DNA of 64,000 nucleotides, from the NCBI RefSeq assembly GCF_050320075.1, contig NZ_CP190018.1, one strand, 5' to 3'. This document shows positions 4,252-59,905 of this stretch, piece after piece; the stretch's first letter is position 1, and each line of letters begins with the position of its first letter. The notes under the pieces are model-generated. The model did no database searches. It was not told the origin of the DNA and saw only the letters and a program-made list of their open reading frames with translations. Origin of the DNA: Escherichia coli (GTDB lineage: Bacteria > Pseudomonadota > Gammaproteobacteria > Enterobacterales > Enterobacteriaceae). A program made the translations under genes and the position numbers.

Positions 4252-5377
4252 TCCGATCCTGTCCTGGCGTCGCGTGCGGGCGCTGTGCGTCAAAGAGACA
4301 CGGCAGATCGTTCGCGATCCGAGTAGCTGGCTGATTGCGGTAGTGATCCCTCTGCTGCTGCTGTTTATTTTTGGCTACGGCATTAACCTCGACTCCAGCA
4401 AGCTGCGGGTCGGGATATTGCTGGAACAGCGTAGCGAAGCGGCGCTGGATTTCACCCACACCATGACAGGTTCGCCCTACATCGACGCCACCATCAGCGA
4501 TAACCGTCAGGAACTGATCGCCAAAATGCAGGCGGGGAAAATTCGCGGTCTGGTGGTTATTCCGGTGGATTTCGCCGAACAGATGGAGCGCGCCAACGCC
4601 ACCGCACCGATTCAGGTGATCACCGACGGCAGTGAGCCGAATACCGCTAACTTTGTGCAGGGGTATGTCGAAGGGATCTGGCAGATCTGGCAAATGCAGC
4701 GAGCGGAGGACAACGGGCAGACTTTTGAACCGCTTATTGATGTACAAACCCGCTACTGGTTTAACCCGGCGGCGATTAGCCAGCACTTCATTATCCCCGG
4801 TGCGGTGACCATCATCATGACGGTCATCGGCGCGATTCTCACCTCGCTGGTGGTGGCGCGAGAATGGGAACGCGGCACCATGGAGGCTCTGCTCTCTACG
4901 GAGATTACCCGCACGGAACTGCTGCTGTGTAAGCTCATACCCTACTATTTCCTCGGGATGCTGGCGATGTTGCTGTGTATGCTGGTGTCGGTGTTTATTC
5001 TCGGCGTGCCGTATCGCGGGTCGCTGCTGATTCTGTTTTTTATCTCCAGCCTGTTTTTACTCAGTACCCTGGGGATGGGGCTGCTTATTTCCACGATTAC
5101 CCGCAACCAGTTCAATGCCGCTCAGGTCGCCCTGAACGCGGCTTTTCTGCCGTCGATTATGCTTTCCGGCTTTATTTTTCAGATCGACAGTATGCCCGCG
5201 GTGATCCGCGCGGTGACGTACATTATTCCCGCACGTTATTTCGTCAGCACCCTGCAAAGCCTGTTTCTCGCCGGGAATATTCCGGTGGTGCTGGTGGTGA
5301 ACGTACTGTTTTTGATCGCTTCGGCGGTGATGTTTATCGGCCTGACGTGGCTGAAAACCAAACGTCGGCTGGATTAG
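4244..5377 (+). CDS. ybhS: ABC-2 type transporter permease YbhS
   Basis: 377 aa polytopic membrane protein, overlaps ybhF stop; conserved operon order. Confidence 0.9.
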
Positions 5378-5387
5378 GGAGAAGAGC

Positions 5388-6494
5388 ATGTTTCATCGCT
5401 TATGGACGTTAATCCGCAAAGAGTTGCAGTCGCTGCTGCGCGAACCGCAAACCCGTGCGATTCTTATTTTACCCGTGCTGATTCAGGTGATCCTGTTCCC
5501 GTTCGCCGCCACGCTGGAAGTGACTAACGCCACCATCGCCATCTACGATGAAGATAACGGCGAGCATTCGGTGGAGCTGACCCAACGTTTTGCCCGCGCC
5601 AGCGCCTTTACTCATGTGCTGCTGCTGAAAAGCCCACAGGAGATCCGCCCAACCATCGACACACAAAAGGCGTTACTACTGGTGCGTTTCCCGGCTGACT
5701 TCTCGCGCAAACTGGATACCTTCCAGACCGCGCCGTTGCAGTTGATCCTCGACGGGCGTAACTCCAACAGTGCGCAAATTGCCGCCAACTACCTGCAACA
5801 GATCGTCAAAAATTATCAGCAGGAGCTGCTGGAAGGAAAACCGAAACCTAACAACAGCGAGCTGGTGGTACGCAACTGGTATAACCCGAATCTCGACTAC
5901 AAATGGTTTGTGGTGCCGTCGCTGATCGCCATGATCACCACTATCGGCGTAATGATCGTCACTTCACTTTCTGTTGCCCGCGAACGTGAACAAGGTACGC
6001 TCGATCAGCTACTGGTTTCGCCGCTCACCACCTGGCAGATCTTCATCGGCAAGGCCGTACCGGCATTAATTGTCGCCACCTTCCAGGCCACCATTGTGCT
6101 GGCGATTGGTATCTGGGCGTATCAAATCCCCTTCGCCGGATCGCTGGCGCTGTTCTACTTTACGATGGTGATTTACGGTTTATCGCTGGTGGGATTCGGT
6201 CTGTTGATTTCATCACTCTGCTCGACACAACAGCAGGCGTTTATCGGCGTGTTTGTTTTTATGATGCCCGCCATTCTCCTTTCCGGTTACGTTTCTCCGG
6301 TGGAAAACATGCCAGTATGGCTGCAAAACCTGACGTGGATTAACCCTATTCGCCACTTTACGGACATTACCAAGCAGATTTATTTGAAGGATGCGAGTCT
6401 GGATATTGTGTGGAATAGTTTGTGGCCGCTACTGGTGATAACGGCCACGACAGGGTCAGCGGCGTACGCGATGTTTAGACGTAAGGTGATGTAA
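5388..6494 (+). CDS. ybhR: ABC-2 type transporter permease YbhR
   Basis: 368 aa polytopic membrane protein paralogous to YbhS. Confidence 0.9.
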
Positions 6495-6866
6495 CTTCTT
6501 ATCTTTCGCCAGCAAAGACACCACCGCCGGGCCGGCAAGGATTGCCAGCCCTGCAATCGCCAGCAAAAAGTTGTTTTCCAGTACACGGGACAATAGCCAC
6601 AGCACAATCAGCGCTGCGCCAAAATACCAGGTCGTGGTCAGCTCTTCCAGCACGTCTGCCACCTCACGCCAGCGTTGCTCGGGGTGGCGCTGAAACACCA
6701 GCATCATCACTACCGTGACACAATACAGTGCGCATAATCCCACGCCGACGTGAACCAGAGTCTTACTCATCCAGCCCACCACCAGCAGCGCCACTACCAG
6801 TAAATGCAACATAATCTGCCAGCAACTTAGACCCGTTGCGACACGAACACGTTGTTGCCACTTCAT
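6456..6866 (-). CDS. ybhQ: inner membrane protein YbhQ
   Basis: 136 aa, four hydrophobic segments; convergent with ybhR, 3' ends overlap. Confidence 0.85.
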
Positions 6867-6998
6867 GGCTTCTCTCCTGAAGAATTTATCTCTACTTACT
6901 CAGAGTACCGAACTTTACGGAAAATTCCGTAAGACCGCACCTTTTTGTGACGCCGACTACACTATTTCAATGAGATAAGAGGCAAAGACAGGAAAATT

Positions 6999-21789: not shown

Positions 21790-21829
21790 AGGGCTTCTCC
21801 AAAACGTGTTTTTTGTTGTTAATTCGGTG

Positions 21830-21870
21830 TAGACTCGTAAACCTAAATCTTTTCAATTTGGTTTACAAGT
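21830..21870. promoter_or_regulatory. bio operator (BirA-binding palindrome) with divergent bioA/bioBFCD promoters
   Basis: cgtaaacctaaatcttttcaatttggtttacaag is the near-perfect bioO palindrome, between bioB start (21789) and bioA start (21876). Confidence 0.8.
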
Positions 21871-21875
21871 CGATT

Positions 21876-23165
21876 ATGACAACGGACGATCTTGCCTTTG
21901 ACCAACGCCATATCTGGCACCCATACACATCCATGACCTCCCCGCTACCGGTTTATCCAGTGGCGAGCGCCGAGGGTTGCGAGCTAATTTTGTCTGACGG
22001 CAGACGCCTTGTTGACGGTATGTCGTCCTGGTGGGCGGCGATCCACGGTTACAATCACCCGCAGCTTAATGCGGCGATGAAATCGCAAATTGATGCTATG
22101 TCGCATGTGATGTTTGGCGGTATCACCCATGCGCCCGCCATTGAGCTGTGCCGCAAATTGGTGGCAATGACGCCGCAACCGCTGGAGTGCGTTTTTCTCG
22201 CGGACTCCGGCTCCGTAGCGGTAGAAGTGGCGATGAAAATGGCGTTGCAGTACTGGCAGGCCAAAGGCGAAGCGCGCCAGCGTTTTCTGACCTTCCGCAA
22301 TGGTTATCATGGCGATACCTTTGGCGCGATGTCGGTGTGCGATCCGGACAACTCAATGCACAGCCTGTGGAAAGGCTATCTGCCAGAAAACTTGTTTGCT
22401 CCCGCCCCGCAAAGCCGCCTGGATGGTGAATGGGATGAACGCGATATGGTGGGCTTTGCCCGCCTGATGGCGGCGCATCGTCATGAAATCGCCGCAGTGA
22501 TCATTGAACCGATTGTCCAGGGCGCAGGCGGGATGCGCATCTACCATCCGGAATGGTTAAAACGAATCCGCAAAATGTGCGATCGCGAAGGTATCTTGCT
22601 GATTGCCGACGAGATCGCCACCGGATTTGGTCGTACCGGCAAACTGTTTGCCTGTGAACATGCAGAAATCGCGCCGGATATTTTGTGTCTCGGTAAAGCC
22701 TTAACCGGCGGCACAATGACCCTTTCCGCCACGCTCACCACGCGCGAGGTTGCGGAAACCATCAGTAACGGCGAAGCCGGCTGCTTTATGCATGGGCCAA
22801 CTTTTATGGGCAATCCGCTGGCCTGCGCAGCAGCAAACGCCAGCCTGGCGATTCTCGAATCTGGCGACTGGCAGCATCAGGTGGCGGCTATTGAAGGGCA
22901 GCTACGCGAGCAACTTGCCCCCGCCTGTGACGCCGAAATGGTTGCCGATGTGCGCGTACTGGGGGCAATCGGCGTGGTCGAAACCACTCGTCCGGTGAAT
23001 ATGGCAGCGCTGCAAAAATTCTTTGTCGAACAGGGTGTCTGGATCCGGCCTTTTGGCAAACTGATTTACCTGATGCCGCCCTATATTATTCTCCCGCAAC
23101 AGTTGCAGCGTCTGACCGCAGCGGTTAATCGTGCGGTGCAGGATGAAACATTTTTTTGCCAATAA
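21876..23165 (+). CDS. bioA: adenosylmethionine-8-amino-7-oxononanoate aminotransferase
   Basis: ORF 21813..23165; 429-aa product from [23 protein letters not shown]. Confidence 0.95.
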
Positions 23166-23223: not shown

Positions 23224-23700
23224 ATGAAACTCATCAGTAATGATTTACGCGATGGCGATAAGCTGCCGCATCGTCATGTCTTTAACGGCATGGGTTACGA
23301 TGGCGATAATATTTCACCGCATCTGGCGTGGGATGATGTTCCTGTGGGAACGAAAAGTTTTGTTGTCACCTGCTACGACCCGGATGCGCCAACTGGCTCC
23401 GGCTGGTGGCACTGGGTAGTTGTTAATTTACCCGCGGATACCCGCGTATTACCGCAAGGGTTTGGCTCTGGTCTGGTAGCAATGCCAGACGGCGTTTTGC
23501 AGACGCGTACCGACTTTGGTAAAACCGGATACGATGGCGCAGCGCCGCCGAAAGGCGAAACCCATCGCTACATTTTTACCGTTCACGCGCTGGATGTAGA
23601 ACGTATTGATGTCGATGAAGGTGCCAGCGGCGCGATGGTCGGGTTTAACGTTCATTTTCACTCTCTGGCGAGAGCCTCGATTACTGCGATGTTTAGTTAA
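23224..23700 (+). CDS. ybhB: PEBP/YbhB-family protein (kinase-inhibitor homolog)
   Basis: 158 aa, MKLISNDLRDGDKLPHRHVFNGMGYDGDNISPHLAWDDVP; last host gene before att-lambda. Confidence 0.93.
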   Translation: MKLISNDLRDGDKLPHRHVFNGMGYDGDNISPHLAWDDVPVGTKSFVVTCYDPDAPTGSGWWHWVVVNLPADTRVLPQGFGSGLVAMPDGVLQTRTDFGKTGYDGAAPPKGETHRYIFTVHALDVERIDVDEGASGAMVGFNVHFHSLARASITAMFS

Positions 23701-23790
23701 TCACTCTGCCAGATGGCGCAATGCCATCTGGTATCACTTAAAGGTATTAAAAACAACTTTTTGTCTTTTTACCTTCCCGTTTCGCTCAAG

Positions 23791-23805
23791 TTAGTATAAA
23801 AAAGC
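23791..23805. other. lambda att core (O) at the attR junction (host B' arm / core / phage P arm)
   Basis: ttagtataaaaaagc is the reverse complement of the 15-bp core GCTTTTTTATACTAA; left flank cgctcaag matches attB. Confidence 0.9.
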
Positions 23806-23960
23806 TGAACGAGAAACGTAAAATGATATAAATATCAATATATTAAATTAGATTTTGCATAAAAAACAGACTACATAATACTGTAAAACACAACATATGC
23901 AGTCACTATGAATCAACTACTTAGATGGTATTAGTGACCTGTAACAGAGCATTAGCGCAA
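23806..23960. promoter_or_regulatory. lambda attP P arm (Int arm-type, IHF, Xis/Fis site region) as part of attR
   Basis: Reverse complement reads ...CTGTTACAGGTCACTAATACCATCTAAGTAGTTGATTCATAGTGACTGCATATGTTGTGTTTTACAGTATTATGTAGTCTGTTTTTTATGCAAAATCTAATTTAATATATTGATATTTATATCATTTTACGTTTCTCGTTCAGC, matching the lambda P arm from memory. Confidence 0.85.
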
Positions 23961-24510
23961 GGTGATTTTTGTCTTCTTGCGCTAATTTTTTGTCATCAAA
24001 CCTGTCGCACTCCAGAGAAGCACAAAGCCTCGCAATCCAGTGCAAAGCTTTGTGTGCCACCCACTACGGCCCGCATAACCAGTAAGAAGATAGCAGTGAT
24101 GTCAAACGACGCAGCAGTCTTCTTTTCTTTCACACTTTCCCCCACCCAGCATACATACCTTTCTGCCACAGCTGAAATGAATGTCTATTATGAGCAAGGA
24201 GAGGAAATTCGTAATTGTCATCATCAATGGCGATTTGCTGGTACTATCTGTGTTAAGTAATAGGAAAACAAGTAACTGGAGAAAGATTTGATTTACACAC
24301 TATTATAGCAGTTAATAGTTTAAGCTATTGACACTTTAACTATTTTGCATAAAGTTAAACATAACAACCCCATAAATTGATAATGCAAGAGAGTACTGAA
24401 CTAAGTATTTTAGCTCTACCATATTGCCCAGGCAGTATAATATATGATACATTAAAAAATTAGATTTAATTTACTTAAACATCCTAATCACACTAAGAAT
24501 GAAGAAATAA

Positions 24511-25389
24511 ATGCTGTTTAAATATTGTCCTATTAATGAGTATTCAATTAAATCTCTAGTGGAAAACAAACTATATCTTAATCATCTCAACATGATGAAT
24601 GACAGTGCTGAAGGTTTTTGTAAGATAATAAGTGGTTTCCCAGATTATAATGAAAAAACTGAGAGATATGATTTGATAATAAAAACATGGTGTGGAGAGT
24701 CTGGCTGGCTACCTTCTGAATATGAATATAACGAATATATTGATTCAATGAGAGAACTGGAACCAAATGTCCCGCAATTGCTGGACTCTGCAAGGATATC
24801 ATGCTTTACGAATACGGCGTTAAACCCTACAATGTGGGCTCATTATGCTAACAACAGAACAGGTATATGTATAGAATTCGATCAAGACAAAATAAGAGAA
24901 CTAGAGGATATCTATATCTTTGACGTCAAATATAAAGATCGCCCTCCGACTATTGATACTGCAGTACTAACATTAATAGCTGATCAGGTGAACTATAATC
25001 ATGATGCAATTTATGATGATTATCAAGAAAAGTTCAAACATCTTTATGAACAAGCATTTGACGAGGGAAGAAATTTGCTTTTGGAAATTTACAATGGAAT
25101 ATTGGCAACTAAATCTCAAGAATGGTCTTATGAACAAGAAAAACGGCTAATATATATTTTATCCTTCTCACAAGAAGACAAATTGGCAAAAAAATATAAA
25201 ACTGGCATAAACATATCACTCCCTGAAGGATGCATTAAAAGTGTTATCCTAGGTGAGAAGACAAGTGAGCATGATAAAAAACTTATAGTTTCAGCTATAA
25301 AAAAACATTCTAAACACATTAAGTTGAAGAGAGCTACAATAACACAAGGCGAATATTTATTATCTATTCGTGATGAAGTTTTTAGCTGA
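24511..25389 (+). CDS. hypothetical protein, DUF2971-like (cargo of the b-region slot)
   Basis: 292-aa ORF in roughly 30% GC DNA; N-terminus MLFKYCPINEYSIKSLVENKLYL...NDSAEGF and central NPTMWAHYANNRTGICIEFD resemble DUF2971 signatures as I remember them. Confidence 0.6.
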   Translation: MLFKYCPINEYSIKSLVENKLYLNHLNMMNDSAEGFCKIISGFPDYNEKTERYDLIIKTWCGESGWLPSEYEYNEYIDSMRELEPNVPQLLDSARISCFTNTALNPTMWAHYANNRTGICIEFDQDKIRELEDIYIFDVKYKDRPPTIDTAVLTLIADQVNYNHDAIYDDYQEKFKHLYEQAFDEGRNLLLEIYNGILATKSQEWSYEQEKRLIYILSFSQEDKLAKKYKTGINISLPEGCIKSVILGEKTSEHDKKLIVSAIKKHSKHIKLKRATITQGEYLLSIRDEVFS

Positions 25390-25678
25390 TGGTATTATAA
25401 TCGAACAGATATTTTCTCCTAAGCGTTGCATTTATCCCACGGTAACATATTCATACTCAAATATCCTGCGACATGGAAGATTTGAGTATGGTTGTTCTTC
25501 ATGAGCGAAAAGCAGATGTTCGCGCTAAGGTATAATCAATTGGTTGTTAAATAGTTTAAACACAAGCAATGACTAATAAAACAATGCCACAAACCTTATT
25601 ATTTCTAAACTAGCATTTAGCTTTCAGACAATTTATTGATTGTTAATACATATTTTTAATATTTAATTATCATTTATT

Positions 25679-25689
25679 CCCCCCCCCCC
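25679..25689. repeat. homopolymeric C11 tract (possible slipped-strand or phase-variable site)
   Basis: tt-ccccccccccc-tcatg, in the intergenic region about 245 bp upstream of ORF 25935. Confidence 0.8.
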
Positions 25690-25934
25690 TCATGCTTATC
25701 AAATACTTCACAACAACGGAATTTTAATCCACATTTGTTATCTGTCTCTATCAGATTCATCCATACCCCCCTCCATTATTATTTAATTTCCAGATAAAAA
25801 TCTTCATCCTGTTATACATATAAAAAAGTGCAATATTTAAATAATGATAACAAATTATTGATTTTGCTCACATAAATTTTATTGACAAGATGATAAGCTG
25901 ATATCTACACATTGTATTTTCTCAAGAGGAATTT

Positions 25935-26348
25935 ATGGCTGACATTGTCACTGGTTTGACCGCACTCAAAACCGCCTTTGATTTAGCAAAAGATATAAAA
26001 AATGCCACTGGCGCATACAATGATGCAGAAATGAGGCTTAAGTTTAGTGAGCTTTATAGCGCGCTATCTGAAGCCAAAATAGAACTGGCTGATACACAGC
26101 TAGAAATGTATGAACTAAAGCTGAAGATCGAAGAGTTGCAAGCTAAGCTTGATGCATCGGACGAGCTTGAATATAGGGAAAACGTATACTGGAGGGCCTC
26201 ACCTATCAATGGCAAACCAAACGGTCCTTTTTGCCCAAGATGTTATGAAAGTTCAGAGAAGAAGCTATCTTCAATGAGTCAAGTAACGGGGCATGCAACT
26301 ATTGCTGGAAAATACAAATGTAATACTTGTAACGCCTACGTTAGATAA
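25935..26348 (+). CDS. hypothetical coiled-coil protein with C-terminal four-cysteine zinc-ribbon-like motif
   Basis: 137 aa; N-terminal heptad-rich helix (LSEAKIELADTQLEMYELKLKIEELQAKLDA), C-terminal CPRC...(23 aa)...CNTC; AT-rich; preceded by aagaggaa RBS-like sequence. Confidence 0.55.
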   Translation: MADIVTGLTALKTAFDLAKDIKNATGAYNDAEMRLKFSELYSALSEAKIELADTQLEMYELKLKIEELQAKLDASDELEYRENVYWRASPINGKPNGPFCPRCYESSEKKLSSMSQVTGHATIAGKYKCNTCNAYVR

Positions 26349-26684
26349 AAAGCCGTTATGGGGCTGGGACGGAGGCTCAAATCCTCTCGTGCAAAAATTC
26401 AGCTAAAACTTTTGTTCAGGAGACTCTGAAAGATACCAAGAAGTCTGCTGACGAGTGGTTTATTTACTAATTAGCACGTAAAATCTATTATGGCTGGAAA
26501 TCATTCAATACTCGTACTATCGAAAGTTCGCCAGCCGACAGCAAAACGCTATTGCATGGCAGGGATTGCAGGCCTCTCGATATTCGGTGCTAAGGATGTA
26601 TCAACACGGTTCAGCAGAACCCGATGCGTCTTCAAAACCGCAGCAACGATATCTCTTCCTCCGTTCCATTTACAGCCACCTTTT

Positions 26685-26993
26685 TCACCCTCGATTAACC
26701 AACAACCAGACCAGAAGACACGCTACCACCGGCACAGCAAAATCCATCAGGCTTGCCATATCCCACGCGCGTGGGTCAAAACCGCCCCACCACGGCATAT
26801 TCATTCGCTTGCCATGCCCGAACATTTCGATCCAGCGATATTCTGCCTGGGTGTGTTCACGCGCAATGAAGAACGTACAACCGGCTATCGCCCCGTAAGC
26901 CCAGTTCCCGGTAAAAAGACCAATCAGTAGCTGCGCAGCCACAGCACAAAGCGCATGAAGGAAAGGTGTTATATCCATTTTCATCCCACCCAA
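26685..26993 (-). CDS. hypothetical small membrane protein
   Basis: 102-aa ORF with two hydrophobic segments, immediately downstream of the tail-fibre genes on the late strand. Confidence 0.45.
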   Translation of the reverse strand: MGGMKMDITPFLHALCAVAAQLLIGLFTGNWAYGAIAGCTFFIAREHTQAEYRWIEMFGHGKRMNMPWWGGFDPRAWDMASLMDFAVPVVACLLVWLLVNRG

Positions 26994-27020
26994 TAAAACG
27001 GGGCGCTCGGCCCCTTAATA

Positions 27021-28061
27021 TTATTTAGACGCAAGCGCCGCATCAATTGCAGATAATCTTTGTCTTAATTCTGCGTTTTCTTCTTCCAGTGCTGTTATTC
27101 TGTCGTCTGACTCTCTGGCTACCTGAACAAGCAAGCCAGTAACACCAGAATAATCTACTGTGTAATAACGTTCACCTTCTTCACCTTCCGATCCGCTCGC
27201 ACCGTCCTGATATTTCATTACGGAACCTACAACTTCTGGGATTGCTTCCAGAGCTTCCTGTGCAATGACACCAGCATAGGGCATACCGTTTTCTTTAAGC
27301 GTGTATGTATAGCCGTTCATTTTACGGATGCGGTCGGTTGCATTATCGATCACCTGAATGTTGTCTTTCAGATCCCGGTCGGAATGCTGGTTAAATGCGG
27401 TGGCATGACATGCACCATTAACGCTTAACATATAGGTGTTATCGGTATTTTTCTGCGCATAGAACATATAAGCGCCACCATCAACACCGACTTCATAAAC
27501 AACAGGACGGCTGGAGTTGCCCCACAATTGAGCAGTAACACCAGCATAAGCGGTTCCCTGTGTGTTTAATGTCATGGTTGACCCATGATTGGCATATTTG
27601 ATCTGTAATGTGTCGGTGTAATCAAATTTAATAAGCGCGTTACTTCCACGCTTGCTGTATGACATAAGGCAGTTACCCATTTTGAGGTATCCGCTGTCAC
27701 CGGGAAAAATCATCGTACCGCCATAAAGGTTGGTAAAGTCCCAGCAAATGTTTGTCCCGTTATCGTTCAGGTTAAGGCGCGCCATTGCGTTACCTGGACT
27801 GTCTATCCATTTTTTGAGGTATAGTTCGCAATATGCATCCTCAACACCTGCCGTCCTGTGAGTTGAGCGGAGTTTTCTCCCAAATATAGCTCCGCTAGTT
27901 GGCAATACCTGCTGATACCATGAAGCAGACCAGTCACCAACGGTTTCATCTTTGCTGTCTACATATGATTTTGTTGCGTAGCTTCCTTGATCGTTTTTTA
28001 ATTTGCTAACGTCGGATTTTAGCGTTTTGATGTCATCAGGAATTACTGTCGATGTAGCCAT
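27021..28061 (-). CDS. tail fibre/spike-like protein with C-terminal intramolecular-chaperone (peptidase S74-like) domain
   Basis: 346 aa; C-terminal 120 aa (SDRDLKDNIQVID...GYTYTLKENGMPYAGVIAQEALEAIPEVVG...YYTVDYSGVTGLLVQVARE...LEEENAELRQRL) resemble the self-cleaving chaperone domain of endosialidase-type fibres. Confidence 0.6.
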   Translation of the reverse strand: MATSTVIPDDIKTLKSDVSKLKNDQGSYATKSYVDSKDETVGDWSASWYQQVLPTSGAIFGRKLRSTHRTAGVEDAYCELYLKKWIDSPGNAMARLNLNDNGTNICWDFTNLYGGTMIFPGDSGYLKMGNCLMSYSKRGSNALIKFDYTDTLQIKYANHGSTMTLNTQGTAYAGVTAQLWGNSSRPVVYEVGVDGGAYMFYAQKNTDNTYMLSVNGACHATAFNQHSDRDLKDNIQVIDNATDRIRKMNGYTYTLKENGMPYAGVIAQEALEAIPEVVGSVMKYQDGASGSEGEEGERYYTVDYSGVTGLLVQVARESDDRITALEEENAELRQRLSAIDAALASK

Positions 28062-51678: not shown

Positions 51679-52143
51679 TTATCTGAGGCATTGCTCTCGA
51701 ATGTATAGCTGTGCCCCTTCAAGTTGTTTTTGCATTATTATCAGTCGCGCTCTGAGGGTGAAATAATCCCGTTCAGCGGTGTCTGCCAATCGGGGGGAGG
51801 CTGCATTATCCACGCCGGAGGCGGTGGTGGCTTCACGCACTGACTGACAGACTGCTTTGATGTGCAACCGACGACGACCAGCGGCAACATCATCACGCAG
51901 AGCATCATTTTCAGCTTTCGCATCAGCTAACTCCTTCGTGTATTTTGCATCGAGCGCAGCAACATCACGCTGACGCATCTGCATGTCAGTAATTGCCGCG
52001 TTCGCCAGCTTCAGTTCTCTGGCATTTTTGTCGCGCTGGGCTTTGTAGGTAATGGCGTTATCACGGTAATGATTAACAGCCCATGACAGGCAGACGATGA
52101 TGCAGATAACCAGAGCGGAGATAATCGCGGTTACTCTGTTCAT
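51679..52143 (-). CDS. Rz: spanin inner-membrane subunit Rz (i-spanin)
   Basis: [60 protein letters not shown] matches lambda Rz; ATGA overlap with R stop. Confidence 0.93.
51741..51923 (-). CDS. Rz1: spanin outer-membrane lipoprotein Rz1 (o-spanin), embedded in Rz in another frame
   Basis: 60 aa, [60 protein letters not shown]: lipobox LVVVGC and proline-rich stretch as in lambda Rz1. Confidence 0.9.
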
Positions 52144-52637
52144 TGCTGACCCCACAAACAGATTTCACGCTCAATCTCACGACGAGTCATGAGACCTTTC
52201 CATTGCTTACCGCCAGCATATGTCCAGCGACGTAACTGATCACATGCGCCTTTGATATCGCCCTGGTTTATTTTGCGAAGAAGCGTCGATGTTCTGAAAT
52301 TGCCAGCACCCACGTTGTAAACGAATGAGTAAAGAGCGCCGCGCGTTGTTTCCGGTATATCGACTTTGATGTACGGGTTAATTTGTCTGGCGACAGTGGC
52401 AAGGTCTTTATTCAAGAGTGCTTTGCATTCTGCTTTGGTATACGTTTTACCGAGCATGATGTCTTTTCCTGTATGCCCGTGACATACAGTCCATACACCA
52501 ACAATATCTTTGTATGGTATGTAGCTGACACCCTCCAGACCATCGTTACCACCTGGACCAGTGATTAACACTGATGCTATAGCAATTGCTCCGCCACCAA
52601 TAGCAGCAGCAACGGCTTTTCGTAATGATGGAGGCAT
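52140..52637 (-). CDS. R: SAR endolysin (lysozyme R, phage-21/DLP12 RrrD type)
   Basis: 165 aa; N-terminal signal-anchor-release segment [28 protein letters not shown]4-lysozyme-like catalytic region. Confidence 0.93.
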
Positions 52638-52852
52638 TATTCACCTCTCGCAGCCTTGCGCTTATCTTCTTTAATCTTGAAATAAAGGTTTGTCAGGTAC
52701 GTCAGCAGGCCAAATACCAAGCTACCCAGCACACCTATTGCTGCCCACTGTGAGGGCGTGACTTTATCGAGCAGCTGTAAAAACCAGTAGCCAGCACTGC
52801 CTGCGGAGGTGCCGTAGGCAATGCCCGTTGTTAACTTATCCATGGATTTCAT
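52637..52852 (-). CDS. S: pinholin S (phage-21/DLP12 EssD type) with dual-start motif
   Basis: 71 aa, [71 protein letters not shown]; Met1 and Met4 give antiholin/holin starts. Confidence 0.92.
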
Positions 52853-53045
52853 AGCCTCACCTCCGCAAATAACGGATGGTGTACACGGTTCGGAACGAAG
52901 AGGAAAGGTATAGAAGTTACATTAGCGTAAGGCTTGAACATCTATTCAAAAAGAAAAACGCCAGCGATTATTCTGGCGTAGCTGAAAGCATCATACAATT
53001 ATCAAATACGAAAATTACAAAATCATTAAAACGCATCACGTTACA

Positions 53046-53627
53046 TCATGTCTTTTCTAAAAAAAATCTTGATGAATATTGATGGGGAGGAACACCAAAA
53101 TATCTTCTGAAAACACTTACAAAATATGACGTGTTTTCATAACCGCATATCTCAGCAACTTTTCCAACAGAATATAAATTGTAGCTTAATAACCTTTCCG
53201 CCATCACCATTCGCTCTTCAAGAATTAACTTACTAAATGATAAGCCTTCGTGCTTTAATTTTCTTTTTAACAGACTTTCACTCAGATACAGTCTTGAAGA
53301 TATATCACAAAGTCTCCATGCTGCAGATATATCCGTGTGAATAATAGCCTTAACTTTACTTCCTAAACTATTAAGACATCCAAATAAAAAACTTTGCACT
53401 ATTTTCTCTGAAGATAAGATAGCAAGACATGCAAGTGATATTTGATTTCTAACAAAATCCACAGTTCTGCCATCACAATTCAAGCATGCAATCAAGTTCT
53501 TTAACAATGAAAAATCTTCACATTCCACCATCAAGTATGCCGGATAAAACCTTCTTACAGAAAAAGGTGAGAGTGTGTTGCTTTTAAAGAAATCATTAAC
53601 TGTTTTCTCTTCAACATCTACGATCAT
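53046..53627 (-). CDS. short AraC/XylS-family transcriptional regulator (cargo between Q and S)
   Basis: 193 aa; C-terminal AraC-type HTH (VGKVAEICGYENTSYFVSVFRRYFGVPPHQY); very AT-rich gene and 500-bp AT-rich upstream region. Confidence 0.75.
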   Translation of the reverse strand: MIVDVEEKTVNDFFKSNTLSPFSVRRFYPAYLMVECEDFSLLKNLIACLNCDGRTVDFVRNQISLACLAILSSEKIVQSFLFGCLNSLGSKVKAIIHTDISAAWRLCDISSRLYLSESLLKRKLKHEGLSFSKLILEERMVMAERLLSYNLYSVGKVAEICGYENTSYFVSVFRRYFGVPPHQYSSRFFLEKT

Positions 53628-54121
53628 TGCATGATCTATATTTGATGAAAAAAATCTTTTAAATTTTAATCAATGAGAACAGCACTTCCTTTTTTAAATA
53701 AAATATCTTCTTTACCAATTCGGACATCAAACGAGTTCAACACCAAAATGATAGAACATATGTATGGCATATTATCCACCTGATATCATTGGGGTTACAC
53801 CAAGTAAGTATAGGTGGAAAATCAATATTCGCCAGTTCAACAATAAGGAAAATCTCATTGCATCACAAGTATAAAATTATGTATTTAACTCACAAAGACA
53901 AATTATTAAACCAATCTGTTATATTATATATAGCTGCGTGGAATCATAATATTATATATTTTGACTGGCATGTTTACCAACTTTAAGTTGCATCTCAATG
54001 GTTTCTTCAGCGTAAACAGAGTTTTTATACAAACTGACACTCTGGGTATCATAGTGTAGTTTTTACGATTGTAAATATCCTGCATGCAGGAACTCATCCT
54101 TTTGGATGATATCGCATACAA

Positions 54122-55081
54122 TTAATTTACCATCAGTCTTAGAGCCAGTTCGTCCGGATAGGGATCGAAGTAATTCTGTGTAAGCAAGTAATCATTAGGA
54201 TACTCACCCAGATAATGCTTCAGCAGAGTCAACGGCGCAAGAAGAGGTAATGTGCCAGAACGATAGTTAAGTATAACCTCGCTCAACTCTTTACGCTGGC
54301 GTGTACTTAAGTAGTTACTAAAATACCCCTGTATATGCATCATCACATTCGTGTGATTTTTACGTGATGCAGGTTTTCTGAGAATCGCCATCAGCTTATC
54401 ACGATACACCTCAAAGTATGATTCAAGGTCCGCCCACTCGTGTATTGCAGCCACAAATGGTCCCATATCTTTATAGCCTGCCTGACTATGCGCCAACAAC
54501 TGAAGCTTATAACGACTATGAAAAGCTAATAACTCTCTTCTTGATAATTTCTCCTTGTAAAGGTGATTGAGCTCATGCAAAGCAAAAACTCTTTCAACAA
54601 AATTCTCACGAAGCACTGGATCATGTAATCGCCCATCCTCTTCAACCGGTAGCCAGGAAAACTTTTCCATCAAAGTGCTCGTAAATAGTCCCACTCCATC
54701 TTTACGACCTCGATTACCATTTTCATCATAGACACGCACGCGCTCCATGCCACAGCTGGGAGATTTAGCACAAACCACAAACCCCGATACATCCTTTAAT
54801 TTGTCCATATAAGAACGACTAAACTCTGTCATTCTCTCTGTCACATCCTCATTCTGGTCGTGGCTGAAACACATCCGTATATTTCCTTGCGTCGAGCGCA
54901 CAAGACGTAGAGCAGGACGCGGAACTGGCAGCCCTATAGCCATTTCCGGACATACTGGTCTGAATGTTACCCATTCCACTAATTTGTCCATTAAAAAGTC
55001 AGCTCTTTTGTGACCACCATCAAAACGAACAGCAGAACCGGCCAGACAACCGCTGATTCCAATCACAGGTTTTTTTATCAT
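54122..55081 (-). CDS. DUF523 (TudS-like) / DUF1722 (YbgA-like) fusion protein
   Basis: 319 aa; N-terminus IGISGCLAGSAVRFDGGHK plus conserved Cys (CPEM, CAKSPSCGMERVRVY) resembles DUF523; C-terminal half resembles DUF1722; assignment from memory of family signatures. Confidence 0.6.
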   Translation of the reverse strand: MIKKPVIGISGCLAGSAVRFDGGHKRADFLMDKLVEWVTFRPVCPEMAIGLPVPRPALRLVRSTQGNIRMCFSHDQNEDVTERMTEFSRSYMDKLKDVSGFVVCAKSPSCGMERVRVYDENGNRGRKDGVGLFTSTLMEKFSWLPVEEDGRLHDPVLRENFVERVFALHELNHLYKEKLSRRELLAFHSRYKLQLLAHSQAGYKDMGPFVAAIHEWADLESYFEVYRDKLMAILRKPASRKNHTNVMMHIQGYFSNYLSTRQRKELSEVILNYRSGTLPLLAPLTLLKHYLGEYPNDYLLTQNYFDPYPDELALRLMVN

Positions 55082-55273
55082 ATCCTCCCCCTTGACTAAT
55101 TCATTAACACATAAACTGTGTAGTGCACGGAATAAATTGCCTTTCTGGCGTCATCACTGACAATTTTTCTGTTATGGACTATTCCTAATATAGTATGAAA
55201 GTTCTTTAAGTGATCGGTCGTAATCATCTATCTTTCATACTTACTCTCAACTATCAAAAGTACAGGATTTATT

Positions 55274-55798
55274 ATGAAGTTATGGCCTGTGTTGACTGGC
55301 ATTGCACTCTCTTTCACTCTTATAGCATGTAAGGCCCCGACACCACCTAAAGGTGTGCAGCCGATTACAAATTTTGACGCCAACCGCTACCTCGGAAAGT
55401 GGTATGAAATAGCTCGCCTCGAGAACCGGTTCGAACGTGGTCTGGAACAGGTCAGCGCTACTTATGGAAAACGGAACGACGGAGGGATTCGTGTACTTAA
55501 CCGTGGATACGATCCAACGAAAAATAAATGGAGCGAGAGCGAAGGTAAAGCATACTTTACTGGAGATACTAAAACTGCAGCGTTGAAGGTTTCGTTTTTT
55601 GGCCCCTTCTATGGTGGCTATAATGTAATCAAACTGGATGATGAGTATAAGTATGCTCTTGTCAGTGGTCCGAACAGAGAATACCTATGGATTCTGGCAA
55701 GGACCCCAACTATTCCAGATAAAGTAAAAGCAGACTATGTGCGAACCGCTCAAAAGTTGGGATTCAATGTCAATGAATTATTATGGGTTAAACAATAA
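55274..55798 (+). CDS. outer-membrane lipocalin, Blc-like lipoprotein
   Basis: 174 aa; lipobox LIAC, then NFDANRYLGKWYEIARLENRFERGLEQVSATY...KAYFTGDTKTAALKVSFFGPFYGGYNVI very similar to E. coli Blc; on the strand opposite to late genes. Confidence 0.85.
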   Translation: MKLWPVLTGIALSFTLIACKAPTPPKGVQPITNFDANRYLGKWYEIARLENRFERGLEQVSATYGKRNDGGIRVLNRGYDPTKNKWSESEGKAYFTGDTKTAALKVSFFGPFYGGYNVIKLDDEYKYALVSGPNREYLWILARTPTIPDKVKADYVRTAQKLGFNVNELLWVKQ

Positions 55799-55835
55799 AA
55801 TCCCTACCCGAAATAATACTTATTAGAATAAATAT

Positions 55836-55860
55836 CCTCCGGCATAGCCGGAGGTTTTTC
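55836..55860 (+). terminator. rho-independent terminator after the blc-like gene
   Basis: cctccggcatagccggagg followed by tttttc. Confidence 0.7.
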
Positions 55861-55869
55861 AAATGCGCC

Positions 55870-56570
55870 TATAAGGCTCTCTTACCAGCCGCGCCCTAAC
55901 AGGCGCACACGATCTGACATTTGCATCCAACTTCGTTACTTACGGCCCGTAAACGGGCTGCCCGGATAGGGAATCGATAACTGCTCTCCCATTTTATCCT
56001 CTTCAAGCTGGTGCTTTATGTAGTCCTGTATCTTCGCCGTGTTCTTACCCACCGTATCGACATAGTACCCTCGGCACCAGAACTCCCTGTTTCTGTATTT
56101 GAATTTCAAATCCCCAAACTGCTCGTAAAGCATCAGACTGCTTTTCCCTTTCAGATATCCCATAAAGCCGGATACGCTCATTTTGGGTGGGATTTCCACA
56201 AGCATATGGATATGATCTGCGCAGCACTCTGCTTCCAGAATCCGTACGCTTTTCCACTCACACAGCTTTCTCAAAATACTGCCTATCGCCCTACGCTTCT
56301 CTCCGTAAAACGCCAGTCTTCGGTATTTCGGCGCAAAAACTATGTGATATTTACAGTTCCAGCGGGTGTGCACTAAGCTCTTTTCGTCCCCCATTGGGAC
56401 CCCCTTTTGATTTCTTGTTTGACACTTGCAGTTGCCAGACCGCAAGGTGTTTTAACAAATCAAAAGGGGTTTTAATAACTGGCTCAAAGCTGAAAGCTTT
56501 CCGGAACCCCCAGCCTAGCTGGGGGTTTTCTGTGCACAAAAAAACCAGCCTTTGGGGAGGCTGGCTAAAT
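55870..56570 (-). mobile_element. IS200/IS605-family (IS200-like) insertion sequence; boundaries approximate
   Basis: HuH Y1 transposase gene flanked by subterminal hairpins (gcccgtaaacgggc at 55937-55950; cccccagcctagctggggg at 56508-56527; ccagcctttggggaggctgg at 56546-56565). Confidence 0.75.
55936..56394 (-). CDS. tnpA: IS200-family transposase TnpA (Y1 HuH)
   Basis: 152-aa product from MGDEKSLVHTRWNCKYHIVFAPKYRR with HxH motif (DHIHMLVEIPP) and catalytic Tyr region (RGYYVDTVG). Confidence 0.9.
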   Translation of the reverse strand: MGDEKSLVHTRWNCKYHIVFAPKYRRLAFYGEKRRAIGSILRKLCEWKSVRILEAECCADHIHMLVEIPPKMSVSGFMGYLKGKSSLMLYEQFGDLKFKYRNREFWCRGYYVDTVGKNTAKIQDYIKHQLEEDKMGEQLSIPYPGSPFTGRK

Positions 56571-56664
56571 CAGGAAACAAGCTGTTATATGATAATAACT
56601 ACGTTGCGATTCCAACATTTAAAATGTTAGACTAATGAGAATCAGACAGCAACTTTTCCTTTAA

Positions 56665-57057
56665 TTATTTCGAACAATCAGCATCCATCTCCAATCGGAG
56701 ATCCAACACCATCAGCATACCCTCCACTACGCCCTCAGCTTTCTGGAGCATCCTGCCAACCCAACAATCAGATCGCCCATGCTTACGTGCAAGCGCCATA
56801 AAAGTCATGCCGCCGACATAATAGTCCACCAATAAATCATGCAAATCGCTGTTGTTCTTTTTCAGACGGGCCATGCACCCGCAAATGATCATCGCGTCAT
56901 CGTCACAACATTGTGGGCGAGATTTTACTTTTGAAGGAATTAATCCCTTAAAACCGGCGGCAATGGACGACCAGGTCACATCTTCATGATTATTAGCCGC
57001 CCACGCTCCCCAACGCTCAAGAACCATCTGAATATCACGCATCAACTTACTCCACAA
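56665..57057 (-). CDS. Q: late gene antiterminator Q (QuuD-like)
   Basis: About 125-130 aa, [62 protein letters not shown] matches DLP12 QuuD; true start probably the internal Met at 57042. Confidence 0.88.
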
Positions 57058-57127
57058 AACTCAGACCAGAACGCCAATTACAAGCAAAAATCAACAAAAC
57101 AGTATTAGTTGATTGTTATCTCTGACT

Positions 57128-57268
57128 TCATACTCCTGCTCCTGTCAGGGTTTTGGCGTAATTCTTCAGTATTCGGTAATCGGTCAAAACAGAACCAGGG
57201 AAACGATATAAGCGCAGGCGCATCCAGCGGTGGCGAAGAAGTTCTGCCATATAAAACTCAAACATCAT
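57128..57268 (-). CDS. ylcG: small protein YlcG (below the ORF-track size cut-off)
   Basis: Manual translation: [46 protein letters not shown] (46 aa); ATGA overlap with rusA stop. Confidence 0.8.
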
Positions 57269-57627
57269 TCATCTCCCTGTTCAGTGATGGTCAGTTCCAG
57301 CTTTCCACCTTTGACAACCGGCATCTTCACAACGCGGTAATCAACGACCTGAGCATCATCCAACCAGAAACCTGCTTTGGTGAGTGCGTCAAAAGCGGCC
57401 TTTTGTAGATTATCCAGGTCACGGCGACGGCGATCCGGCATGTGACACTCAATGCGGATTTTCACAGGCATAGCCAGGCCGATATCCAGCATTGCGTTTT
57501 TAATGATTCGGGCGACGTTTTCGCGGTATGCCTGCCCCTCTGCGCTGATGTGCGTGCGCCCGCGATTATGGCGGTAATAGCGATTATTGCTCGGCGGCCA
57601 GGGTAATGTGATATTGTAGGTATTCAC
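57265..57627 (-). CDS. rusA: Holliday-junction resolvase RusA
   Basis: 120 aa, [73 protein letters not shown]. Confidence 0.95.
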
Positions 57628-57914
57628 GCCTTAATTACCCCCTCTTTCAGCCAGATAACCTGCGTTCTCGCCATACCTTCCAGCGCGCATTCTTTTGCAT
57701 ATCCAGCGTCAACAAAATGCGTGCGACGGTCGATCTCGTCGTGACAGGCAGAACATGCAATGGTGGCAATCAGGTCTGGCGGTTTGATACCGGTACCGCA
57801 CAATCCAGCCAGCCGGATATGTGCCAGTACAGACGTTTCAGGATTGCCATTACATACGCCAGGGATTCTTACCTGGCATTCCCGACCACGCGCTGCTTTT
57901 CTCAAATCAGCCAT
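57624..57914 (-). CDS. ybcO: YbcO-like protein (DUF1364, putative nuclease)
   Basis: ORF 57624..57953; 96-aa product from [40 protein letters not shown], preceded by aggagg. Confidence 0.88.
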
Positions 57915-58077
57915 GATTCCTCCTTGCTGCCAGTCGCAACCATTTTTTATCAACCAGGCTGGCGGTATATCCGAGCAGTGTTGGTATTTCGGATGGTTTC
58001 AGCTCAGGCCTACGCTTACGACGATTTGGTACTTTGTAGATGTGTCCGTTCATGACACGAATAAGCGGTGTAGCCAT
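57907..58077 (-). CDS. ninE: NinE-like small basic protein (below the ORF-track size cut-off)
   Basis: Manual translation: [56 protein letters not shown] (56 aa); TAATG overlap with ninB stop and ATGGCTGA overlap with ybcO start. Confidence 0.8.
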   Translation of the reverse strand: MATPLIRVMNGHIYKVPNRRKRRPELKPSEIPTLLGYTASLVDKKWLRLAARRNHG

Positions 58078-58532
58078 TACGCCTCCTGCTTATCACGCAG
58101 CAGCTGGAACTCGCAGCTCTGCGGAATAGTCAGGTGGCAGCCAATATTCATCGCCCAGGCTTCAACCTTACACAGGAAGACATACATCTCTCCGGTATCA
58201 AGGTCGGAGGTATGGCGTAACGACTGGATAGTGGTGATATCACCGGTTACGACATCAACCAGGTCTTTGGTTTCATAACCGAGATATGTGTGTTTGAGAG
58301 CATCTTTTACCCAAGCTGGAGTGGCGAACGTTTTACCCCTGCTGATGAGGTATTCACTGATTTCGCTGTACCACATGTGGCTGAGTGCATTCTGGGAAAG
58401 ACTGCGTCTCTCGCGCCACGGTTTAAGCACCATGCGAAAGCATTTGCCGTCCTCCAGATAAGGCTGGATCTGCCGACCGATAGCGGTGAAGTTACCGCGA
58501 TGTAATTTGATGCCATCTTGTGGGAGGTTCAC
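58077..58532 (-). CDS. ninB: NinB-family recombination protein (YbcN-like)
   Basis: 151 aa, [62 protein letters not shown]. Confidence 0.88.
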
Positions 58533-58726
58533 GCTTCACCTCCGCAGAGGTCAAACGTTGGATGCAAAGAATCGCAGGTGCATTTCTGCATCTGTGAAGA
58601 GAGAAGAGAGTTTAGATTGTATGTGCGCATAAACGTCCCCGTTTAGCGCAGAAGTCACCGGAGTTGTTCAGGCTCCAATGGCATGATTATGGCTGGTTGA
58701 TTATTGGAAATCAAATGTGCTGAAAA

Positions 58727-59236
58727 TTAGTCTGCCAAGTCTTCCTCAGTCGCAACTGGGTAATTCCAAATATCAAAAAAAGCTATAGCCTCCTGCCATT
58801 TGCTCCATAAGTTATCAAGTACTTGTGTAGGTTCCGTACTTTTAAAAACAGAATCAGCCGCATCACCGTTATGAACTTCCTCGTACAGTTCCATTATTAG
58901 CAGATTAACAAAGTACTGTTTCAACATTAATGCCTGATTACCTTCTTTCTGCTGGCTATCCTGCTTGATGATCTCCATCGCCCGTACTAGGCACCTGATG
59001 ATATCCGCTGCATCATTAACGCTCCATTCAGATCCGCGCTTATCTTTAGCTGATGAATTGGCTCTCTCAGCGCAAGCCTTTAAAGACTCATAAAGGTAAA
59101 CTCTATTTTGTAGCTGCAGCGCTTTTTTTGACGTGTACCAACTTGCAAGCGCCGACCCCGCTGCGGCTAATGTGCCAAACGCAGAAATACCTGCTGCTAT
59201 TGCACTTAAGTCGGCACTGTCAAAGTTCCACATCAT
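58727..59236 (-). CDS. hypothetical membrane-anchored protein (cargo between ninB and ybcK)
   Basis: 169 aa; N-terminal hydrophobic segment LSAIAAGISAFGTLAAAGSALASWY then soluble helical domain; AT-rich; no family recognised. Confidence 0.55.
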   Translation of the reverse strand: MMWNFDSADLSAIAAGISAFGTLAAAGSALASWYTSKKALQLQNRVYLYESLKACAERANSSAKDKRGSEWSVNDAADIIRCLVRAMEIIKQDSQQKEGNQALMLKQYFVNLLIMELYEEVHNGDAADSVFKSTEPTQVLDNLWSKWQEAIAFFDIWNYPVATEEDLAD

Positions 59237-59905
59237 CGTTACACCTTATATAAATACCCCTCAGTAATATCCAATAAGGTATGTGCACAATCAATATAAT
59301 TTTATCCGTATCGGCACATAGCGATTTGAAGGCTACTGGTAATAGTATATTTTAGATTATATCGTCCAGTTTACAGCACCCGTATTTTATGAAATGGACT
59401 CGCATATTACCCAAAAAATGCCAGCACTTCCGTCATCGTAGAATGCTGGCAGTATTTCTAACTAGTGACTTTATTGGAACAGATTCTGACGGAAATATGG
59501 TAACACTCGACTCCACTTATCATCCAGCCACGGCTGGAATTTTACATGTGCCGTTTATCTGGCGAGGATTGCTCGCGCTCTGTTGAGTATCTGGGGATAT
59601 TCATGCTCGATAGAAGTAAAGCGGCCGGCTTCGCGGTGCTCCGCAACCTGAAGTAGTGGAGTAACGTTCTGGCAGGCAGTTAACATCACATCACCTGCTC
59701 GCCATAACCAAGCACGTGCACAAAGTTTGTTATCAGTGAATTGTTTTGTGATTGGGTATTGTTGAACTGCTAGAACGAGAACGCCAGCATCCATTGGCAG
59801 TCCCTATAGTAAAACCATAGCTCAGGACGCTTCGTTCAGGATAGATAATTTTATTGTACTTACCTAACTTTCTTACTATAGCACGGTTGAAAAAGTGATT
59901 ATTAC

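Follow-up and report, generated by a model that had tools for sequence, protein, structure and literature searches.

Two candidate defence genes of the DUF2971 and Rip1 families in the b region of a lambda-like Escherichia coli prophage

We have analysed a stretch of 64,000 nucleotides of an Escherichia coli chromosome (contig NZ_CP190018.1, assembly GCF_050320075.1), hereafter the window, and in particular two genes located just inside the attR end of a lambda-like prophage. In this region the host genes bioA (21813–23165) and ybhB (23224–23700) are followed by lambda attR, and then by gene 1 (24511–25389, 292 aa) and gene 2 (25935–26348, 137 aa), both on the plus strand. Both open reading frames (ORFs) had been pointed out in an earlier note made from the sequence alone, and they coincide with the RefSeq coding sequences WP_001550858.1 ('DUF2971 domain-containing protein') and WP_001550856.1 ('hypothetical protein'), respectively. 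At their G+C (GC) contents, a stretch of 292 codons would lack a stop codon with a probability of 1e-10, and one of 137 codons with a probability of 2e-4, so neither is likely to be a chance ORF. In addition, both genes are under purifying selection. The ratio of the non-synonymous to the synonymous substitution rate (dN/dS) is 0.17 for gene 1 against its Enterobacter orthologue, and for gene 2 against its orthologues the proportions of non-synonymous and synonymous differences are 0.13–0.36 and about 0.8. A GC content of about 30% had been given for both genes; this holds for gene 1 (32.5%) and for the spacer between the genes (30.3%), but not for gene 2 (41.4%), the value for the whole window being 51.1%.

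Positions 23787–24209 of the window are 95.8% identical to lambda 27742–27319 and comprise the attR core, the P arm and the sib/tI region. Since the lambda core is annotated at 27724–27738, the attR core is placed at 23791–23805, where the sequence itself shows the reverse complement of GCTTTTTTATACTAA. The homology to lambda stops at 24209, i.e., at lambda coordinate 27319, before ea59. To the right of attR there is a near-complete lambda-like prophage, whose late genes are on the minus strand. The minus-strand content includes the tail fibres, lom, J through the small terminase subunit, the lysis genes and Q, and the prophage also has a nin region, O/P, cII, cro and cI. The lambda alignment and the gene order therefore bear out the placement of both genes in the slot between the attP P arm and the tail-fibre genes, opposite to the late operon. 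In lambda the same slot is occupied, in the same orientation relative to the late operon, by ea47, ea31 and ea59. A kinship with these Ea proteins had been suggested, but a blastp alignment of both proteins gives nothing significant (best E value 0.03 over 38 residues, others above 0.4), and we have rejected it.

The assignment of gene 1 to DUF2971 is correct. In a profile search, Pfam DUF2971 (PF11185) matches the protein at 1.1e-12 over model positions 1–89 of 89. The PADLOC family PDC-S31 (PDLC04990), listed there as a single-gene candidate defence family, matches at 9.5e-38, with residues 1–288 aligned to profile positions 8–257 of 259, and phrog_1762 matches at 3.2e-44. An NCBIfam search with the gene-1 and gene-2 proteins gave noise-level matches at most, a PDB profile search with the gene-1 family gave no match, and our literature search found no mention of PDC-S31. 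The family of gene 1 is large, comprising 4440 representative clusters at an E value of 0.001 or less. In an alignment of 73 of its sequences, sharing 22–82% identity, G118, E208, E210 and R212 are invariant, while K4, N30, D31, W109, H111, Y112, C120, Y141, K201, W205, Y207 and G248 are conserved in at least 90%.

An AlphaFold2 model of gene 1 built with this alignment has a predicted local distance difference test score (pLDDT) of 96 and a predicted template modelling score of 0.89, and shows E208-x-E210 at the head of strand 210–216. Going by the model, the protein has an ADP-ribosyltransferase fold, predicted to be closest to the DNA ADP-ribosyltransferase DarT and the RNA 2'-phosphotransferase Tpt1; that is, its best structural neighbours are nucleic-acid-modifying enzymes. 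This agrees with a survey of Legionella ADP-ribosyltransferases (PMC12522546), which on the basis of prediction places DUF2971 among the DarT/AbiGi-like families of these enzymes and describes a conserved tyrosine and an ExE motif for it; in gene 1, both are found in an ADP-ribosyltransferase-like fold. Compared with DarT itself (PDB 7yk3, 7omv, 8baq), gene 1 shows a sequence identity of 6–10%, has large helical inserts, and carries ExE instead of the DarT motif. Gene 1 as a member of the DarT family or of DarTG systems was rejected, since it has no Pfam DarT match and no flanking macrodomain gene: the DarG macrodomain antitoxin of DarTG has no adjacent counterpart in any context examined.

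Among described systems, gene 1 can be compared with Aristaios, a 316-aa DUF2971 gene of a lactococcal plasmid, which has been validated as an anti-phage system consisting of one gene and shows an abortive-infection phenotype (PMC11381338). The two have the same Pfam domain, similar size (316 vs 292 aa), a predicted ADP-ribosyltransferase fold, and a single-gene organisation on a mobile element. They differ in their homes, as Aristaios is from the Lactococcus plasmid pUCCL641_199 whereas gene 1 lies in a prophage b region of a Gram-negative host, and the comparison is made through Pfam membership, not sequence identity.

Gene 1 should be regarded as the main part of a small cassette. By blastn, positions 24219–25412 (plus strand) form one homology block, in which the DUF2971 gene is flanked by 292 bp on its upstream and 23 bp on its downstream side, and which is 80.5% identical over 1214 nt to a CP4-57-like island of Enterobacter hormaechei (positions 5690–6902 of locus L002). 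The block has a GC content of 31.5% and starts 10 bp past the end of the lambda homology. In the Enterobacter element, the orthologue (82% amino acid identity) lies among YfjS/YfjT, antirestriction, RadC and CbeA/CbtA genes. In Salmonella, the orthologue (68% identity) resides in an integrative and conjugative element, between an EcoRII restriction-modification system and an NsnABC-like cluster. More distant DUF2971 genes are carried by 430 plasmids and by a small number of phages, SSU5 among them. Overall, the neighbours of gene 1 vary in each context and no DNA beyond the 1.2-kb cassette is shared, as is found for stand-alone genes; the homology block suggests that the cassette moves as a unit with its own upstream DNA.

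We also observed that, in the Salmonella elements (L004–L007, 7156–10095), the three genes adjoining the gene-1 orthologue match PADLOC NsnA, NsnB (1e-95) and NsnC (1e-107). The EcoRII restriction-modification system is about 4 kb away on the other side, and the whole constitutes a compact defence island on a conjugative element.

Gene 2 (25935–26348, plus strand) encodes a 137-aa protein with a small-residue-rich N-terminal helix, a coiled coil and a C-terminal CxxC...CxxC zinc ribbon. Phrog_1244, a family without known function, matches it over its full length at 1.3e-16. The Pfam search gave nothing significant, with a weak Zn_ribbon_IS1595 match (0.0027) and coiled-coil noise. Its family comprises 72 protein clusters across Enterobacterales, none of which carries a name. 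Conservation in this family is complete at K19, G97, C100 and C103 and reaches at least 90% at C129 and C132. The structure model (pLDDT 78) has helices at 2–24 and 30–74, followed by a small beta domain with the four cysteines, so that the coiled coil and the cysteine pairs seen earlier in the sequence are borne out by both conservation and model. Structure searches with this model gave generic helical hairpins as the sole matches.

The affiliation of gene 2 comes from profile comparison. In a PDB profile search, the top match was chain L of 9oox, 'ring interacting pore 1 (Rip1)', at a marginal E value of 0.049, aligned to residues 9–135 of gene 2 including the C-x-x-C-Y-E...C-x-x-C signature. 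Three independent checks agree with this match: hhalign of the gene-2 family with the Rip1 sequence gives a probability of 94.1% (E value 1.2e-7); Rip1 itself matches phrog_1244 at 9.3e-49; and hhalign with an alignment of Rip1 and two phage homologues gives 97.4% (E value 1.5e-11) over 134 columns, covering gene-2 residues 1–137. Because of this agreement, gene 2 is best described as a remote homologue of Rip1 and a divergent member of the Rip1 family. The signature common to both proteins is K19, V-Y-x-R and G-x-P...C-x-x-C-Y-E...K...C-x-x-C. In addition, the most hydrophobic 15-residue windows, IVTGLTALKTAFDLA in gene 2 and VSGAGGALMSAVGAV in Rip1, are both N-terminal and rich in small residues, and they lie at aligned positions. 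PADLOC has no family for gene 2 nor for Rip1 itself, because its 2023 database is older than the description of Rip1.

Rip1 (phrog_1244, PDB 9oox) is gp37 of the lambdoid phage HK446, a protein of 164 aa. It is encoded opposite to the pL operon, between N and an anti-restriction (ral-like) gene. Relatives of Rip1 occur in 56 phage records, including the Pseudomonas phages D3112 (orf25), DMS3 and JBD30, and D3112 orf25 lies on the opposite strand between the terminase genes. According to a conference summary, Rip1 is a prophage-encoded defence against incoming phage, and 12 Rip1 monomers cap the 11-subunit small-terminase ring (PMC12908700); according to a citation in a 2026 preprint, it senses the small terminase subunit (bioRxiv 10.64898/2026.04.30.721860). 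Like Rip1, gene 2 is a small gene of a lambdoid prophage placed as a moron, with the same PHROG and the same architecture including VYxR. The differences are an identity of about 26–28%, the shorter ends of gene 2 on both sides, and its position next to att in the b region. Moreover, unlike Rip1, the gene-2 subfamily is absent from sequenced phage records, as tblastn of gene 2 against 50,697 of them gave no match. Terminase binding and pore formation by gene 2 would be expected by analogy with Rip1.

The orthologues of gene 2 (46–78% identity) show a consistent location: they are the first gene inside a lambdoid prophage end, after host genes or an integrase, as seen in Citrobacter, Pantoea, E. 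coli and another enterobacterium. Downstream of them there are SRAP, umuD/umuC-like and DinI genes, beyond which the opposite strand carries the tail-fibre and J genes. A Morganella orthologue adjoins GmrSD and HEPN genes. The homology block that gene 2 shares with these loci runs from 11 nt upstream of its ATG to 26392, and ends with a degenerate 3' fragment of a tRNA-Pro gene (26353–26392, plus strand), which by comparison with the orthologous loci looks like a fossil att core travelling with gene 2. At present, this fragment might act as a terminator for gene 2 or form the 3' end of its transcript. The fragment is followed directly by the C-terminal fragment of a DinI-like gene (26393–26470, plus strand), a pseudogene recognised by RefSeq annotation, phage matches and neighbourhoods, DinI being the usual downstream neighbour of gene-2 orthologues.

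Further details of these neighbourhoods are as follows. In Citrobacter, Pantoea and E. coli an identical tRNA-Pro 3' half with its downstream hairpin is found within about 10 nt of the stop codon of the gene-2 orthologue (6415–6510 in locus L008, about 6420–6500 in L014 and about 5430–5510 in L016), and no complete tRNA is present. It is kept even where the gene-2 proteins share only 54% identity, whereas the window keeps only the degenerate piece, fused to the truncated DinI. The Citrobacter loci (L008, L009, L011) carry at 4732–5472 an ORF of 246 aa, about 530 bp upstream of the gene-2 orthologue, i.e., in the slot taken by gene 1 in the window, and this slot may be a variable cargo site. 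The 246-aa ORF has no Pfam or PADLOC match, and the other neighbours of gene-2 orthologues have no PADLOC match. A claim for a general hotspot is thus not supported.

The two genes had been taken as a pair, and here the comparison leads to a different view: their association is one of adjacency. Both cassettes are present in the same 45 of 5426 complete E. coli genomes, at an identity of at least 99%, and nowhere else in this set; since the 45 genomes carry one clonal prophage, they count as a single observation of co-occurrence. No gene-2 homologue was found within 6 kb of the gene-1 orthologues in Enterobacter and Salmonella, nor in the other DUF2971 contexts examined. Conversely, no DUF2971 gene was found near the gene-2 orthologues in Citrobacter, Pantoea, E. 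coli, Morganella and metagenomes. That is, co-occurrence across independent lineages, which a conserved two-gene defence operon should show, was not observed. The genes also fall in separate homology blocks of different GC content, with a spacer of 546 bp between them. This spacer contains an 85-nt fragment (25431–25516) which by blastn shares about 83% identity with the region at the start of island-type site-specific integrase genes, and which is matched in about 870 E. coli records annotated 'site-specific integrase'; in all probability it is a recombination scar. Outside this fragment, the spacer is AT-rich and unique to the lineage of the prophage. Genes 1 and 2 therefore appear from their sequence contexts to be no functional pair, but two unrelated, separately acquired genes. 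As an aside, the spacer has a poly-C tract (C11, 25679–25689, plus strand) 246 bp upstream of gene 2. It was noticed by comparison with strain 144, where a C10 tract is the only difference over 2.3 kb. The shorter form is apparently present in most of the 45 genomes, and the difference could be real slippage or a homopolymer sequencing error.

Based on the above analyses, we consider it probable, with some reserve, that the b region of this near-complete prophage holds two independent single-gene morons of defence type, one encoding a DUF2971 protein resembling ADP-ribosyltransferases and the other a relative of Rip1. Homology suggests a defence activity for both. The earlier idea of prophage accessory or anti-phage cargo is in line with the PDC-S31 match of gene 1, its DUF2971 domain shared with Aristaios, and the remote homology of gene 2 to Rip1. 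That note could not assign the genes to any described system; each can now be placed in a recently described family, and they are additions to described families, not a novel two-gene system.

In this favoured reading, both genes would be expressed in the lysogen and would protect it. The enzyme encoded by gene 1 would be held inactive, possibly by its long helical insert (residues 150–198), until an infecting phage activates it. It would then ADP-ribosylate a nucleic acid or an essential protein, with consumption of NAD+, and replication would be halted in an abortive-infection manner, as reported for Aristaios. For gene 2, if the homology to Rip1 is a guide, the coiled coil and the zinc-ribbon part would bind the small-terminase ring of the invading phage. 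The ring would template an oligomer of Rip1 type, whose N-terminal helices, rich in small residues, would form a membrane pore, so that the infected cell would die or be de-energised before the packaging of phage progeny.

On the other hand, a number of points weigh against this interpretation. The defence role of both genes in E. coli is argued from homology. PDC-S31 is a candidate family without validation, the host of Aristaios is Gram-positive, and the tie between Aristaios and gene 1 is shared Pfam membership. The motifs I and II of ADP-ribosyltransferases were not placed in gene 1. No antitoxin or macrodomain gene lies beside gene 1 in the window or in the orthologous loci, which leaves the restraint of a DarT-like toxin unexplained. 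As to gene 2, the mechanism of Rip1 is drawn from a conference summary, one citation and a PDB title, and the prophage has its own small terminase, which must be tolerated alongside gene 2. Regarding expression, the promoter scan revealed no convincing promoter for gene 2, and the regions upstream of its orthologues share none. Furthermore, DNA of 30–40% GC is normally silenced by H-NS in E. coli, and silencing is to be expected here.

A more far-reaching interpretation combines several of the above observations, and we regard it as conceivable but unlikely. According to it, gene 2 would represent a distinct branch of Rip1 at prophage ends, always the first gene inside att and accompanied by the fossil tRNA-Pro core, which recognises a different ring-shaped phage protein or acts unlike Rip1. 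Gene 1 would be an antitoxin-free DarT-like ADP-ribosyltransferase of nucleic acids, and the attR-proximal b region would be a stacked defence hotspot like those of P2/P4.

It is also possible, at a somewhat lower probability still, that the genes serve the lytic cycle of the prophage itself. In lambda, the ea genes are read from pL through attP after excision, and genes 1 and 2 match ea47, ea31 and ea59 in position and orientation, with the lambda sib/tI region kept directly upstream. Gene 1 would then ADP-ribosylate the host machinery like Alt, ModA and ModB of T4, and gene 2 would modulate the prophage's own terminase or packaging; the contact of Rip1-family proteins with terminase, reported in the summary cited above, and the location of the D3112 homologue between terminase genes would fit such a role. 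However, the orthologues of gene 1 are found in islands, an integrative and conjugative element and many plasmids, where a role in phage development makes no sense, and gene 1 comes with its own upstream DNA. Rip1 and D3112 orf25 run opposite to the surrounding phage operons, which is the typical arrangement of morons, and the summary account of Rip1 reports a block of incoming phage. The gene-2 subfamily, for its part, is absent from all the phage records searched.

The orientation of the genes, which had been taken as compatible with expression from the lysogen, does not discriminate here. Since the lambda ea genes share it and are read from pL after excision, orientation alone is no argument for expression in the lysogen. 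Promoter-like sites do not help either: 17 were found against 12.3 +/- 3.6 in shuffled sequence, i.e., no excess. The best candidate upstream of gene 1 in the promoter scan is a sigma-70-like site at 24328–24355 (plus strand, TTGACA-16-TAAAGT, 10/12), which lies inside the gene-1 cassette and whose hexamers are partly conserved in the Enterobacter cassette. Gene 2 has a Shine-Dalgarno sequence, AGAGGA, 5 nt upstream.

The remaining explanations are far less probable. One of them is a two-component system transcribed as a whole from the promoter of gene 1, in which, e.g., gene 1 would be a DarT-like toxin and gene 2 would provide its antitoxin, a sensor or a regulator. The genes are indeed adjacent and co-oriented, in E. 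coli each is found only with the other, and the scan predicted no terminator between them, so that incidental co-transcription is possible. All the E. coli occurrences nevertheless amount to the one clonal prophage, the orthologues elsewhere lack the partner, the cassettes are set apart by the integrase scar, and PADLOC lists the family of gene 1 as a single-gene candidate; we therefore give this system very little chance.

We hold it equally improbable that the product of gene 1 is secreted or injected by this extraintestinal E. coli lineage as an ADP-ribosylating virulence effector, and that gene 2 encodes, unrelated to this, a small zinc-ribbon protein with a regulatory function. Effectors do occur in the family: the Legionella survey predicts about 18% of DUF2971 proteins as such, including lpg1268 (PMC12522546), and the prophage bears other morons of virulence type, namely iss and a gene for an inverse autotransporter. 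But there is no secretion system or chaperone nearby, the closest orthologues of gene 1 lie in a defence island beside restriction-modification and NsnABC genes, the best structural neighbours are the nucleic-acid-modifying enzymes mentioned above, and gene 2 is homologous to Rip1 over its full length.

Beyond the two genes, the b region is a mosaic made up of scars. First comes the lambda P arm with sib/tI, followed by the gene-1 cassette, the integrase fragment, the spacer, and gene 2 with the degenerate tRNA-Pro fragment; then come the DinI C-terminal fragment, a 64-nt piece of the lambda b region, a 3' fragment of the tail-fibre-assembly gene tfa, a small membrane-protein ORF, and the minus-strand tail fibre, lom and J genes. 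A megablast of the region against the phage records gave the DinI fragment as the sole match. The membrane-protein ORF encodes 102 aa (26685–26993, minus strand). An Rfam scan of 23600–27100 found nothing but a sub-threshold match to IS009 (26592–26704, minus strand; 41.6 bits against a gathering score of 117, E value 1.7e-7), which lies outside gene 1 and gene 2 and overlaps the tail-fibre-assembly remnant and the start of the 102-aa ORF. Elsewhere in the prophage (about 50000–64000, placed by correspondence with locus L027) there are further morons, i.e., iss (bor-like), a lipocalin gene, a YbgA-family gene and a SieB gene beside ral, and the inverse autotransporter gene (1302 aa) sits between the nin region and P. 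Although this patchwork of fragments, the lack of strong promoters and the likely binding of the AT-rich DNA by H-NS could point to decaying, unexpressed relics, there is hardly any likelihood of this, as both frames are intact and identical in the 45 genomes, all the family-invariant residues are kept, and purifying selection against the orthologues is clear.

Conceptually, the favoured reading of two separately acquired defence-type morons holds nothing surprising, since defence genes as prophage morons are well established. The analysis provides testable annotations for two genes, so far 'hypothetical', whose clonal prophage is present in 45 complete genomes, mostly from humans, of an E. 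coli lineage that is common in the clinic, and the locus illustrates how defence cargo builds up in the lambda b region through cassette insertion. For DUF2971, a family of more than 4000 clusters at 50% identity with one validated member so far, from a Gram-positive host, gene 1 would make a convenient model in E. coli. Gene 2 adds to the Rip1 family, itself newly described, a divergent subfamily which is widespread at the ends of lambdoid prophages in Enterobacterales.

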